Shown: positions 8,564 through 12,639, numbered from the stretch's first letter. The stretch: DNA of 64,000 bases from Escherichia coli (GCF_009931435.1 NZ_CP043414.1); one strand, 5' to 3'. Translations and numbers: made by a program. Notes: generated by a model from the letters alone, not told the origin.

Positions 8564-8579
8564 CATCCGTCGTTGACAC
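8564..8579. repeat. 16 nt identical to the IS100 right terminal repeat (catccgtcgttgacac); solo IS21-family end remnant
   Basis: Exact match to 25513-25528 plus flanking c of the IS100 copy in this window. Confidence 0.5.
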
Positions 8580-9329
8580 CGACCTGGTGAGTGACAGTCT
8601 GAGAGACCGGTTAAGTGGTGGTACGGGAGTAATGAGTTTGGGGTGGGTACCAGAATGCCAGTCTGGCGGTATGCTGACAGTATCACGTTAATTGCAGCAT
8701 AAAGTGATGAGAGGCTAATGGAAGTTAAAACCAGAGCAGTTCCGTCGTTGTTCATCCCGGGAGACGCTGGAAAAAGTGATTTCCCACACGCGTTATAAGC
8801 TTACTCCAGCGGAGATGGAAGCCTTCAACTCTGCGGTCGATCACCGACTGGCAGAACTGACAATGAACAAGCTTTACGATCGTGTTCCCGCTTCAGTCTG
8901 GAAATATGTCATCTGAGCGTTCGGTAATCACAACTGCATCGCGCCAGGTGTTATCCGCTTTGTGATTCTTATTGGCTCTTCTCAGGTTATTAAAAGCTGA
9001 ATATGTTCCTGTTGTCGGGAACCAGGATAATACCGGGAGCGTTAAGCGGTATAGCGACAACAAAGAATTCGAAATCAAAAGGGAATGGTGCCGGAGGCGT
9101 GGGCGGTAATAGGCTGATTTTCAGGTATTACCGGCTTACAACGTGTGGTTGATATTGAGGGGCTGTGAGTTTCGCGTATTTGTCAGAAACCCAGATGAGT
9201 TTTCCTGTATGGGACGAAATAAGGCAGCGGCAATACCTGGAAAATTTAATATGGTATGAAGGAGAACCTGTCGGTTACGCTTAATATACACGGTACACTG
9301 TCAGCTCAGGGGATACATGAACCGTTATC

Positions 9330-9539
9330 TCACCAGCTACACAGTATACACACACTGACGCTGACAGTAGTCAGCAGGACCACAATAATCAGCGCCAGCA
9401 GTATGGTAACGATACGGTCTGTATTCCGGTAGTAGCCGAAGGGGTCGACAGAACCACAATACGGGCAACACACTGTATTATTAGTAATCGCGTTTCCACA
9501 GTCCCTGCACTTCTTTTGCGTATCACCATAACTCCCTCC
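9330..9539 (-). pseudogene. Small zinc-ribbon plus transmembrane-helix protein, apparently frameshifted
   Basis: ATG at 9529 with strong GAGGAGGGAG Shine-Dalgarno opens a 46-codon frame; the -1 frame encodes CRDCGNAITNNTVCCPYCGS followed by a hydrophobic helix (IVTILLALIIVVLLTTVSVSV) but lacks a start codon. Confidence 0.4.
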
Positions 9540-9727
9540 TCACAGCCTTACCCGTAACCGGTTTTTTACATTAAAAAACAACGCTGAAAATTCAACCGTC
9601 AGTCCGGAGACGACCGTTCGGGTTATCACAGAGTGCCTGAGACAGTGTCCTGCCGGAGGTCACTTCAGGGACTCTGCGCATTTTTTACGACGTGGCTATT
9701 CCGTATGAACCATACGGAGATTTAACC

Positions 9728-10297
9728 ATGACCTACAAATACAACCCCTTCTGGCAGCAACGTATTCGTGAGACGGTGCGGCACGCACTGAATGTTCATC
9801 CCCGCCTGACGGCATTGCGGGTTGACCTGCGTCTCCCGGATGTACCGGCAGCAACGGACGCAGCTGTGATATCCCGCTTCATCAATGCCCTGAAAGCCCG
9901 AATCGACGCTTACCAGAAACGTAAGCATCGGGAAGGTAAACGCGTGCATCCCACCACCCTGCATTACGTCTGGGCCCGGGAGTTTGGGGAGTTCAAAGGT
10001 AAAAAACACTATCACCTGATGCTGCTGGTCAACCGGGATACCTGGTGTCGTGCCGGTGATTACCGCGCTCCGGAGTCTCTGGCCGGGATGATTAAACAGG
10101 CGTGGTGCAGTGCCCTGGGAGTGGATGTCGGGTGCCATGCCACGCTGGTGCATTTTCCGGCCTGGCCGGCGGTGTGGCTGGCGCGTAATGATGACACCGG
10201 CTTTCAGCAGGTGCTGGAACGTGCTAACTATCTGGCGAAGGAGCATACCAAAGCTCACTGCACCGGTGAGCGCAACTTTGGCTGCAGTCGTGGCTGA
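9728..10297 (+). CDS. HUH-type rolling-circle Rep-like protein (YagK/YfjJ / inovirus gp2-like family)
   Basis: HUH motif KKHYHLML and YxxK motif (NYLAKE) near the C-terminus; ATG 9728 with GGAG Shine-Dalgarno embedded in an 8 bp palindrome (9700-9718). Confidence 0.65.
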   Translation: MTYKYNPFWQQRIRETVRHALNVHPRLTALRVDLRLPDVPAATDAAVISRFINALKARIDAYQKRKHREGKRVHPTTLHYVWAREFGEFKGKKHYHLMLLVNRDTWCRAGDYRAPESLAGMIKQAWCSALGVDVGCHATLVHFPAWPAVWLARNDDTGFQQVLERANYLAKEHTKAHCTGERNFGCSRG

Positions 10298-10462
10298 GCC
10301 AGACAGACGAGTTATCTGACTTCAGTGTGATGACGTGTTCACGGCCACCACACTGATTTTCCCTTATGAGACTGAACTGAAACCGCCATTCACACCTGAC
10401 CACGCTGCCCGTACCGGGACGGCTGTTGCCTGCGTGTCGTCTGACGGTAAGGAACATATACT

Positions 10463-10855
10463 ATGTACGCAAAATCCTTTCTCGCTCTTGATGGCAACGG
10501 ACGTCTGACGGGCGCCCGTACAGCACAGGCCGCACCTTATGCTCACTACACCTGCCACTTGTGTGGCAGTGCACTCAGATACCATCCGCAATACGACACT
10601 GAACTTCCCTGGTTTGAACACACTGACGACAGGCTGACAGAGCACGGTCAACAGTGCCCTTATGTCAGGCCGGAGCGCAGAGAAATACAGTTGATTAAAC
10701 GTCTGCAGCAATTCGTACCGGATGCCTTACCCGTGGTGCGTAAAGCCAGCTGGCACTGCAGACAATGTCACCACGATTATTATGGGGAGCGGTACTGCAC
10801 ACACTGCCAGACCGGAGGTTTCAGTCTTCCCCGGACAGCTCAGCAACTGTCTTGA
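10463..10855 (+). CDS. Uncharacterised zinc-ribbon protein (paralog 1), CxxC pairs and PWFEH motif
   Basis: 130 aa; CHLC ... PWFEH ... CRQC-x10-CTHC; AAGGAA Shine-Dalgarno upstream; paralogous to 12019..12423. Confidence 0.6.
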   Translation: MYAKSFLALDGNGRLTGARTAQAAPYAHYTCHLCGSALRYHPQYDTELPWFEHTDDRLTEHGQQCPYVRPERREIQLIKRLQQFVPDALPVVRKASWHCRQCHHDYYGERYCTHCQTGGFSLPRTAQQLS

Positions 10856-10864
10856 ACGTAAAAA

Positions 10865-11833
10865 TTATGGAGCAACGTGATGGTACGATTCATTCCATTC
10901 TTCGTTCTTTCTGAGCATTGCGTTCAGGATAGTCAGCAGCTTGCGTATACAGGCAACCAGCGCCACTTTTTTGGGTTTTCCTGCGGCAAGCAGTCGCATG
11001 TAAAACACCTTTATTACCGGGTTAAAGCGGGTTGCGACAAGCGCTGCCATGTACAGGGCTGTTCGCACACCAGCCCTGCCGCCAAAGATGGTTCGTCGCC
11101 CTCTCATCGTGCCCGAGTCCCGGTTTACTGGAACCATACCGACAAGCGCACTGATTTCACGCCTGGAGAGGTTACCCTGTTCGGGTACTTCCGCCAGCAG
11201 CGCAGCAGCCGTCATGGTGCCAACACCTTTAATATTGCTCAGTCGCTTAGCAAGCTCTTTGAAGTGGCTATGGATATGGCTGTTCATGTCAGCATCTAGT
11301 CGCGCAAGCTCGTCTTCCAGTGCTTTGATGATGATATTAATGCTTTTCCTGTTCTATGGATGAGCAGGGTGCAACCGGTTTCTCTCGGCAACCAGCATCG
11401 TAATCAACTGCCGCCTACGAACTACCATTGCAGTGAGAACCTGACATTCAGTATCCGGCAGTGCTCTGATAAAGCGTTCCCGCTCCGGATGCCGGTTGAG
11501 AACCTCAGCCATCTGGTAAAGCACTCTGGCATCAATACTATCAGTTTTCGCGAGGTATCCCATGGTGCGGGCAAAGTCACGAGCTTGTCTGGGGGTAACC
11601 ACGGCAAGCTCAAAACCTTCTGCCTGAAGCGCACAGACTATGGCGGTTTCAAGTCCTCCAGTGGCTTTCATTAAAACCAGCGCAATGGCGTACATTCTCA
11701 ACTCAGCAATGATGGCCTCAAAGCCATCACTGTCATTGCCGACAGAAAATTGTTCAATAGCGCTGCTGGCGGCAATATCCAGTATCGCTTTCGAAACATC
11801 GATACCCACACAAAGTGAACCTGGCTGACTCAT
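10865..11833 (-). pseudogene. IS110-family transposase interrupted by a single in-frame amber codon (TAG at 11356..11354)
   Basis: ORFs 11851..11354 and 11287..10865 share one reading frame; the 22 codons between them are open apart from the TAG. Confidence 0.7.
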
Positions 11834-12005
11834 GATTACCCATCCTTGCAAATGCGTTATGGCGTACTGACAACTGTTCGGGTTTCAGATGAGTGGCTCA
11901 GTGTATGCGCCATTCGCTGAGCTACGGGCTATGAACCCCTTGAGGGATCGGGCTGCATACACCTTGCCAAATCTAATCACAGTTATTTTAACCAATTGTC
12001 AAGAT
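11834..12005 (-). ncRNA. Candidate IS110-family bridge-RNA region (structured 5' non-coding arm); hypothesis only
   Basis: 8 bp stem (11901-11908 with 11955-11962) enclosing a smaller hairpin; TTGACA hexamer on the minus strand at 12002..11997; analogy to IS621-type elements. Confidence 0.25.
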
Positions 12006-12018
12006 ACAAGGAGGAGAT

Positions 12019-12423
12019 ATGCGAATTCTGAACTGCTATATGGCGAATGACAGCAAAGGCCATTTTGTTACGGCGAAAGAAGCCGCGAAGAACAACCGAC
12101 AGGACGTTTTGTGCTGTGTGTCCTGTGGTTGTCCGTTAACACTTAAGCGGGGCAATGACGGACAACCGCCGTGGTTTGAACATGACCAGATGACTGTTGC
12201 TGCGAAAATCCTGCTGCGATGCACCTGGCTTGACCCGGCAGAGAAAGAGGCCCGTCGTTTGCATCTGCAGGGCATGACGGTTCCGGATTATACGGTGAAG
12301 GTGAGAAAGTGGTTTTGTGTGATGTGTGACGAAGATTATGAGGGGGAAAAGTGCTGCCCGCGTTGTGGTACCGGGGTATACAGCAGGGATAGGGGGGCTG
12401 CAGGAGGGCAACTGGAAGGATAG
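12019..12423 (+). CDS. Uncharacterised zinc-ribbon protein (paralog 2)
   Basis: 134 aa; CCVSCGC ... PPWFEH ... CVMC-x9-CCPRC; strong AGGAGGA Shine-Dalgarno; same architecture as 10463..10855. Confidence 0.6.
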   Translation: MRILNCYMANDSKGHFVTAKEAAKNNRQDVLCCVSCGCPLTLKRGNDGQPPWFEHDQMTVAAKILLRCTWLDPAEKEARRLHLQGMTVPDYTVKVRKWFCVMCDEDYEGEKCCPRCGTGVYSRDRGAAGGQLEG

Positions 12424-12617
12424 GAACTGAGCGGTTCAGTCGCGGAAATCAGTTGCAGAGCTGTAATGATATCTCCGGGAGTGCTGCGTTGGTAGGGGCA
12501 TCCCGGGATAGAGAAATTTTAGCACTTTGCCCTGAATGATTGTAGACGTCCCGAGTACTCGTACCGGCCTGAGTTATTACAGTTAGATATTCGCTTTTTC
12601 TCCCGCATACTTCACAG

Positions 12618-12639
12618 CTGTCAACGACGGATGAAAAGT
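12618..12639. repeat. 22 nt identical to the IS100 right terminal repeat (tgtcaacgacggatgaaaagtg), opposite orientation to the 8564 copy
   Basis: Exact match to the reverse complement of 25507-25528; the following sequence is not IS100 interior. Confidence 0.55.

Follow-up and report, generated by a model that had tools for sequence, protein, structure and literature searches.

IS100, an insertion sequence (IS) of the IS21 family that occurs in Yersinia pestis and Escherichia coli, encodes the transposase IstA and the helper ATPase IstB. In a 64,000-nucleotide stretch of E. coli DNA (GCF_009931435.1, NZ_CP043414.1; hereafter the window), two short motifs lie on either side of a 4-kb segment, and the origin of these motifs is described here. 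Both are identical to the right repeat of IS100, whereas the two sites hold no istA or istB and less than one complete repeat each. IS5376, another member of the IS21 family, gives 5-bp repeats in vitro, and its IstA requires two complete repeats per end (PMC10122671). The second of our sites resembles ISEc38, an ISL3-family element, in the RefSeq transposase name, the DDE_Tnp_ISL3 and Zn_ribbon_ISL3 domains, the GGnTCTTCCGCAAC inverted repeats and the 8-bp duplication of the lone core; it differs in that most genomic copies wear an extra 21-nt IS100 tip at each end and are flanked by repeats of 5–6 bp, not 8 bp. Partridge and Hall are said to have described in 2003 that the 38-bp terminal repeats of Tn21-family transposons take up IS4321 and IS5075 (IS1111 group, IS110 family) at a single position. 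These two likewise target a defined position inside the terminal repeats of another element, but by DEDD chemistry as opposed to the DDE chemistry of ISEc38; they inactivate the host end, and we know of no case in which they hollow out the host and leave a hybrid with its tips. Imprecise excision of transposons of the Tn10 and Tn5 type, through deletion between short direct repeats or replication slippage, is established. The first of our sites resembles it in that a deletion independent of RecA between direct repeats of 8 bp would account for the loss of the element and for the short terminal scar, and differs in that one of the repeats lies in flanking DNA rather than both coming from the element or its target duplication, so that 16 nt of backbone and one duplication copy were lost as well. 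Miniature inverted-repeat transposable elements (MITEs) and Tn3-derived inverted-repeat miniature elements (TIMEs) are non-autonomous and consist of the ends of an autonomous element (PMC4133298). They share with the hybrids described below the bracketing of foreign DNA by short repeats of one element and a duplication of the parent's length, whereas the passenger of the hybrid is a complete, apparently autonomous IS of another family and its retained tips are shorter than IstA needs in vitro.

The two motifs are very probably independent IS100 relics, one a deletion scar (site 1) and the other the terminus of a hybrid ISEc38 element (site 2), with ordinary island backbone between them. The reference for the comparison within the window sequence is the following element.

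23575–25528, plus strand: complete IS100, 1954 bp.

The 15-mer TGTCAACGACGGATG is present in exactly three copies in the window, at 8564–8578 (minus strand), 12619–12633 (plus strand) and 25514–25528 (minus strand). Only 0.16 copies are expected by chance and three matches were reached in none of 100 shuffles, in agreement with the sequence-only reading, which had called the matches beyond chance. Realignment to the IS100 right end also upholds its observation of two exact copies of the right repeat in opposite orientations with no adjacent interior (15/15 at site 1 and 22/22 at site 2), with small corrections to their extent. At site 1, where 16 nt had been given (8564–8579), 15 nt stand; IS100 ends at A25528, and the 16th base, C8579, is outside it. 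At site 2 the match is real but had been placed one base too far left, at 12618–12639; it covers 12619–12640 and pairs with 25507–25528. The IS100-derived part is 21 of these 22 nt, G12640 being the first base of an ISL3 core and coincidentally the same as G22 of IS100. Site 1 thus retains 15 nt and site 2 retains 21 nt of a terminal repeat of ~25 nt. In the adjacent window sequence neither motif is flanked by istA, istB or IS100 interior, and two complete repeats per end are also lacking. Both motifs are IS100 remnants and not elements. The complete IS100 at 23575–25528 is itself flanked by differing pentamers, CTGAT (23570–23574) and CAGAT (25529–25533), without a target duplication, which suggests that, once it had inserted, IS100 copies recombined or an adjacent deletion took place.

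Site 1 is a genuine solo IS100 right-end remnant that arose from a microhomology deletion and not from an IS-mediated rearrangement of the neighboring block. It is composed of the following features.

8564–8578, plus strand: solo 15-nt IS100 right-end remnant CATCCGTCGTTGACA, a deletion scar, matching IS100 25514–25528 exactly.
8564–8571, plus strand: 8-nt microhomology CATCCGTC, the probable deletion crossover, common to the island backbone and the IS100 right repeat.
8579–8583, plus strand: CCGAC, presumably the surviving one of the two 5-bp target copies made by the lost IS100; the corresponding backbone sequence is ...GTAT CCGAC CTGG.

An alignment with five island paralogs shows GCATCCGTC-TGAGCGGTAAACGTAT-CCGACC in the paralogs and GCATCCGTC-GTTGACA-CCGACC in the window, the 7 nt of GTTGACA replacing 16 nt. 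The 8-mer CATCCGTC is conserved throughout this alignment and is found in every island paralog without IS100, the paralogs reading CATCCGTC-TGAGCGGTAAACGTAT-CCGACC, and a second copy of it lies 8–15 nt from the IS100 right tip. A chimeric query, made of the IS100 right end and the window flank, matched one genome, strain 700462, which carries a complete 1954-bp IS100 in the homologous alpA-hha intergenic site of a paralogous island. The junctions of this allele read ...TATCCGACC / TGTCACG...GTTGACA / CGACCTGG, with the duplication CGACC positioned 1 nt to the right of the site deduced for the window. When the window IS100 was placed in silico into the backbone of P13-6, the closest IS-free one, with a CCGAC duplication and then deleted between the CATCCGTC copies, the exact window junction was obtained; the simulated deletion is 1967 bp, and the two copies used are the only pair in the reconstructed stretch. 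The filled 700462 allele and this reconstruction bear out the earlier suggestion that site 1 is an IS21-family end remnant left by deletion. The scar allele is found in 385 of 5426 complete E. coli genomes, always on the chromosome, as counted with a 58-nt probe that is unable to seed on the ancestral allele.

In the proposed course of events, IS100 would have inserted in the alpA-hha intergenic region with a 5-bp duplication of CCGAC. Two direct copies of CATCCGTC, one in the backbone ~20 nt upstream of the insertion point and the other near the IS100 right tip, would then have been the endpoints of a deletion of ~1967 bp, probably by slippage or illegitimate recombination, in which the element was removed and 16 nt of backbone gave way to 7 new ones, GTTGACA. 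One CCGAC copy is left, and the backbone alignment together with the 700462 allele suggests that the deletion took the other. That the 15-nt match is instead a coincidence, an ordinary small intergenic indel resembling an IS100 tip, is very unlikely. Just 7 of the 15 nt are new, the other 8 being conserved backbone, and the 15-mer alone has a blastn-short E-value of 0.001; however, the new bases reproduce the IS100 tip without a mismatch and continue the backbone 8-mer in register, the pentamer next to them is what a 5-bp duplication would leave, the paralog carries an independently inserted full IS100 at a distance of 1 nt, the reconstruction is exact, and three 15-mer copies never occurred in the 100 shuffles. 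Short solo IS tips can be precisely diagnosed, and the 15-nt scar is a marker of a lost IS100 common to the 385 genomes.

The alpA-hha intergenic region (8540–8760) holds two independent IS100 insertions 1 nt apart, with CCGAC for the window scar and CGACC for 700462 (locus L037, NZ_CM128581, 3088–5041), in island paralogs that are 87% identical. Its backbone also contains partial look-alikes of the IS100 right tip, CATCCGTC at 8564–8571 and TCCGTCGTTG at 8741–8750. With the scar and the independent insertion so close together, this alpA/hha-like regulatory region appears to be a hot spot for IS100.

Site 2 is the outermost part of an ISEc38-type ISL3 hybrid and not a solo IS100 end. The sequence around it is organized as follows.

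12619–12639, minus strand: 21-nt IS100 right-repeat tip, outer terminus of the hybrid ISEc38 element (22/22 match; homology in unrelated contexts begins at TGTCA).
12640–13375, plus strand: ISL3-family (ISEc38-like) core, 5' 736 bp with the rest lost, recognized by identity to the complete hybrid, Zn_ribbon_ISL3 and the RefSeq 'ISL3 family transposase' pseudogene.
12640–12662: ISL3 inverted repeat GGTTCTTCCGCAACTTGGGTGGA, within the ISL3-family core.
12714–13052: open reading frame, the start of the transposase gene, with a Zn_ribbon_ISL3 domain; truncated pseudogene.
13649–14869, minus strand: IS30 with a 383-residue transposase (open reading frame 13656–14807) and 26-nt inverted repeats, lying in the IS debris by which the ISL3 element is cut short; assigned by inverted repeat, reading frame and annotation.

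A BLAST search of 12350–12950 against the 5426 complete E. coli genomes returned ~2800 genomes with the whole stretch, as well as unrelated chromosomal and plasmid contexts in which homology begins within a few bases of 12619 (query 267–270). The genes at these unrelated contexts are named 'ISL3-like element ISEc38 family transposase' in RefSeq. In over ten unrelated contexts, on the left and on the right, the break is in every case exactly at TGTCA. Positions 12619–13375 are 96.2% identical to positions 1–757 of the complete hybrid, and intact homologues of the window ISL3 transposase contain PF14690 and PF01610. The terminal inverted repeats of the GGnTCTT type that are expected of ISL3 are found at 12640–12662; the 8-bp duplication is seen at loci L028 and L031, the right end of the window copy having been lost. 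The remainder of the window hybrid was lost to an IS3-family fragment and the IS30 at 13649–14869, the insertions of which destroyed it and spared the first 757 bp (12619–13375). The motif at site 2, taken before as solo, therefore belongs to the terminus of another element, of the ISEc38 type, at 12619–13375, the very case that the sequence-only reading had named as speaking against itself.

At the position homologous to 12619, strain L16-131 (locus L047, NZ_CM132215, 6061–8040) is the only genome with IS100 interior. This IS100 is complete and separate and lies flush against the hybrid tip with the duplication ACAGC, the sequence reading ...CGTGACA-ACAGC-TGTCAACG... An in-situ replacement of IS100 at the window site was considered and rejected, the IS100 of L16-131 being a separate insertion and not an ancestral one. 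The junction, with a left tip, 5 bp and a right-tip-like sequence abutted, is reminiscent of IS21-type tandem junctions, and suggests that IstA/IstB recognize the 21-nt tip at least as a target landmark.

Several observations weigh against the reading of the two motifs as a deletion scar and a hybrid terminus. For site 1, no genome was found with IS100 at the exact window offset (duplication CCGAC), so that the lost IS100 is one that we infer; the filled allele is seen 1 nt away, in an 87%-identical paralog. An 8-nt microhomology so near the insertion point has a low prior, roughly 1–2% by our estimate, and its closeness may instead reflect a target preference of IS100. For site 2, the complete hybrid at the chromosomal site of the window (L008) has no target duplication.

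A complete hybrid is 1764 bp long; in L007 (3501–5264) it reads TGTCAACGACGGATGAAAAGT / GGTTCTTCCGCAAC...1722-bp core...GTTGCGGAAGAGCC / ACTATTGCACCGTTCGTGACA, one tip being the IS100 right tip and the other the IS100 left tip, with 21/21 identities each. The core has canonical ISL3-type repeats and the DDE_Tnp_ISL3 and Zn_ribbon_ISL3 domains. Its length of 1722 bp (L004, 3022–4743) is also what we take to be that of the ISfinder entry for ISEc38. The core is found in several other arrangements. In L028 and L031 it lies inside genuine IS100 right-end sequence with the ISL3-typical 8-bp duplication ACTTTTCA; in strain SMBL it follows nt 1–1941 of IS100; the sequence that precedes it is 46 nt of the IS100 left end in L018 and 55 nt of a right end resembling that of IS100 in the Salmonella locus L039; and in L015 IS100 sequence is entirely lacking on one side of the core. 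The four kinds of junction are all located immediately 5' of GATCCA in the IS100-end repeats.

R1 junction: TGAAAAGT / GATCCAC
L1 junction: GCAATAGT / GATCCAC
L2 junction: TGAAATCA / GATCCAG
R2-equivalent junction: TTAATATT /

Across these junctions, which amount to about six distinct classes or events rather than a census, the core appears to have a strong target preference for IS100 terminal repeats. To form the hybrid, the core would enter the 8 bp that adjoin GATCCAC on its outer side in the IS100 terminal repeats, giving an 8-bp duplication, and the IS100 interior would subsequently be lost, leaving 21-nt tips around the core. Direct observation extends to sequence identity, the allele filled by IS100, the reconstruction, the occurrence of nested and intermediate forms and the lengths of the duplications; the order of events, the route of deletion and the way in which hybrids spread are deduced from them. 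A simple flank of an ISL3 insertion with an 8-bp duplication was rejected as the source of the 22 nt at both hybrid ends, where the flanks are inverted and not direct repeats.

Related hybrids occur outside E. coli, with 73% DNA identity to ISEc38 in Klebsiella and 83–85% protein identity in Salmonella (83%) and a metagenome. The Klebsiella and Salmonella tips match a different element resembling IS100, with 86% identity to it, that persists as a remnant on Klebsiella plasmids, so the association of an ISL3 core with IS100 ends is not one accident. The remnant itself is a 213-nt right end on Klebsiella IncF plasmids (L049, MK649826, 3001–3213), its first 22 nt are the outer tip of the Klebsiella and Salmonella ISL3 hybrids, and ~420 plasmids carry an end of this type at at least 95% identity. 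A scan of the GTDB representative genomes for GGYTCTTCCGCAACYTGGGTGGA gave 0 matches and is uninformative.

The 21–22 nt at 12619–12640 could alternatively be an intrinsic extension of the ISL3 inverted repeat, its likeness to IS100 being due to shared ancestry or convergence. The tips of the complete copy do form an imperfect inverted repeat continuous with the ISL3 repeat, and the Klebsiella, Salmonella and metagenome relatives are also tipped and have diverged in step. Such an extension is nevertheless highly improbable, as the left and right differences of IS100 are copied exactly in the two L007 tips, the core in L015 is tipless, and cores are found within real IS100 (with the 8-bp duplication in L028, and in SMBL) or joined to 46–55 nt of an IS100-type end. 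Furthermore, the Klebsiella tips are the end of a separate IS100-like element, and the core is seen in either orientation relative to the tips.

As for the segment between the two sites, the tip at 8578 reads ...TGACA and its body side lies leftward, and the tip at 12619 reads TGTCA..., its body extending rightward. Both tips consequently face outward, so that neither element includes the block 8579–12618, which lacks the boundaries of a transposable unit. The adjoining pentamers, CCGAC (8579–8583) and ACAGC (12614–12618), match neither directly nor as reverse complements, and the two junctions are distributed independently, with the scar in 385 genomes versus ~2800 for the zinc-ribbon/ISL3 junction. 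The order alpA-hha-Gp2-Zn-Zn-ISL3 and its orientation are unchanged in O104:H4, P13-6, 700462, L16-131 and plasmid pARG01, whose islands variously lack the scar, the IS110 element or both. The sequence-only reading had proposed that the motifs delimit the segment and that it was rearranged or mobilized as a unit; the tips belong to separate relics facing away from it, and a comparison with related genomes finds the same order and orientation of the 8.6–12.6-kb region with or without the motifs. There is no support for mobilization or rearrangement of the 4-kb block as a unit, and the block is ordinary island backbone. That the two ends form a functional or historical pair delimiting a unit that was inverted, deleted around or mobilized whole finds some encouragement in their being of the same type (right repeat) and inverted, as expected for inverted IS flanks or replicative inversion, and in the IS richness of the region, but we consider it to have almost no chance of being correct given the outward tips, the unmatched pentamers, the 385 versus ~2800 genomes, the unaltered gene order and orientation in islands without the scar and the rightward course of the site 2 element. 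For the window, the motifs are IS debris and should not be taken as boundaries of a mobile unit.

Direct repeats at the TGTCA...TGACA boundaries of hybrids were found at nine unrelated sites, of which seven have 5 bp and two have 6 bp.

GCTCC, 5 bp: pO26-Vir-type plasmids (L005/L016).
CCTCC, 5 bp: L032.
ACTGT, 5 bp: L036.
GTAAT and CCATG, 5 bp: plasmid pEC_RSHH22_1, after re-pairing of flanks shuffled by inter-copy recombination.
GTTTC, 5 bp: metagenomic relative L041.
GTTGA, 5 bp: Salmonella L039.
CCTCCG, 6 bp: L029.
TCCCGG, 6 bp: RSHH22.

The duplications of IS100 itself that were directly seen are 5 bp long (CGACC in 700462 and ACAGC in L16-131), and the ISL3 core moving alone makes 8-bp duplications. 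With repeats of 5–6 bp as compared with 8 bp for the core, the hybrids bear an IS21-type footprint. No target duplication was found around the hybrids L008, L004, L007, L014, L018, L027 and L043. On the RSHH22 plasmid, the duplications of copies L033–L035 re-pair across copies (L007 is the same site on a related plasmid of strain M8), which indicates recombination between copies. In strain RSHH22 (L033–L036, CP096903 / CP096902; L038) four or more copies of the hybrid encode identical transposases; three are on one plasmid, with inter-copy inversions, and one copy has split the istA gene of an ISEc12.

Hybrids may spread in two ways. In the first, IstA/IstB would mobilize them in trans, which fits the tips and the length of the duplications. 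Against this route counts that IstA of IS5376 depends in vitro on two complete repeats per end, while the hybrid keeps 20–21 of the ~25 positions of one repeat and is without a second repeat; when its ends were searched for a sequence that might stand in for the second IstA repeat, nothing rose above background. In the second, a site-specific core would repeatedly hollow out resident IS100 copies, which fits the intermediates and the finding that a single genome holds the core in both orientations, the transposases being identical, and against which counts that an IS100-filled allele was not found at the enterohemorrhagic E. coli plasmid site. It is possible, although we regard it as doubtful, that the ISEc38 clade is a specialized parasite of the IS100 group, which would integrate site-specifically in the 8 bp outside GATCCA of L1, L2, R1 and R2, the IstA-binding repeats, eliminate the host interior and form hybrids with 21-nt tips that are then moved in trans by IstA/IstB. 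If so, transposition of the IS21 family would manage in vivo with much less end sequence than the pair of complete repeats required at each end in vitro, and hybrids driven by IstA/IstB would constitute a natural test of the minimal end requirements of the family and an instance of one IS family hijacking another.

Taken alone, the two window features are ordinary: one is an excision scar, the other a nested IS that was truncated. The relation between the ISEc38 core and IS100 ends seems not to have been described before; the literature searched for ISEc38 with IS100, ISL3 or terminal repeats, ISfinder curation notes not covered, contained survey lists only and no mechanistic description. ISEc38 is routine in resistance-plasmid surveys and mostly exists as a hybrid with IS100 tips, and annotation that calls 'ISEc38' and 'IS100 fragment' separately will misread the hybrid junctions.

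Both sites lie in a CP4-type island of the E. coli chromosome that adjoins cobU-cobS-cobT, ldtA and Asn tRNA genes. In the near-identical chromosome NZ_CP025859, the RefSeq order is a YfjI family protein, an AlpA-type regulator, a truncated Hha/YmoA gene, an 'inovirus Gp2 family' (YagK/YfjJ) gene, a zinc-ribbon gene, an IS110-family pseudogene, a second zinc-ribbon gene, the ISL3 pseudogene, an IS3-family fragment, IS30, more IS fragments and cobU. Pfam matches in the region are Phage_AlpA, HHA, YagK_YfjJ_C, DUF7828+Zn_ribbon_11 (twice), Transposase_20 and Zn_ribbon_ISL3. The segment between the relics comprises the following features.

8579–12618, no strand assigned: island backbone between the relics, defined by Pfam, RefSeq annotation of the near-identical chromosome and gene order kept in other islands.
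8767–8916: truncated hha-like gene.
9728–10297: YagK/YfjJ (inovirus Gp2-like) gene.
10463–10855: first DUF7828+Zn-ribbon gene.
About 10865–11833: IS110-family pseudogene element.
12019–12423: second DUF7828+Zn-ribbon gene.

The gene previously called Rep-like is present, and its product is a YagK/YfjJ protein according to Pfam. A structured-RNA or regulatory role for the motifs was dropped because an Rfam scan of 7500–13500 gave no family at E ≤ 1. The hha-like gene encodes 49 residues and is N-terminally shortened (Pfam HHA positions 12–57); paralogous islands have longer versions of up to ~70 residues (RefSeq 'hha', coding sequence of 213 nt, locus L010). The long stretch upstream of it, 8018–8766, is conserved at 83–100% identity in ~2500 genomes, with no RNA family match. 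The IS110-family element at 10865–11833 has an internal stop and is ~82% identical to IS110-family elements of Klebsiella plasmids. It sits between the paralogous DUF7828+Zn_ribbon_11 genes 10463–10855 and 12019–12423, which overlap in O104:H4 and pARG01, where the element is absent. Elsewhere in the window, a 104–111-nt repeat is present in four copies (19592–19702, 22001–22111, 26548–26654 and 40038–40148), three direct and one inverted, of which the first coincides with the tRNA-Asn gene position of a near-identical chromosome. The spacing of these repeats suggests island integration sites, for example for the region 26.6–40.0 kb.

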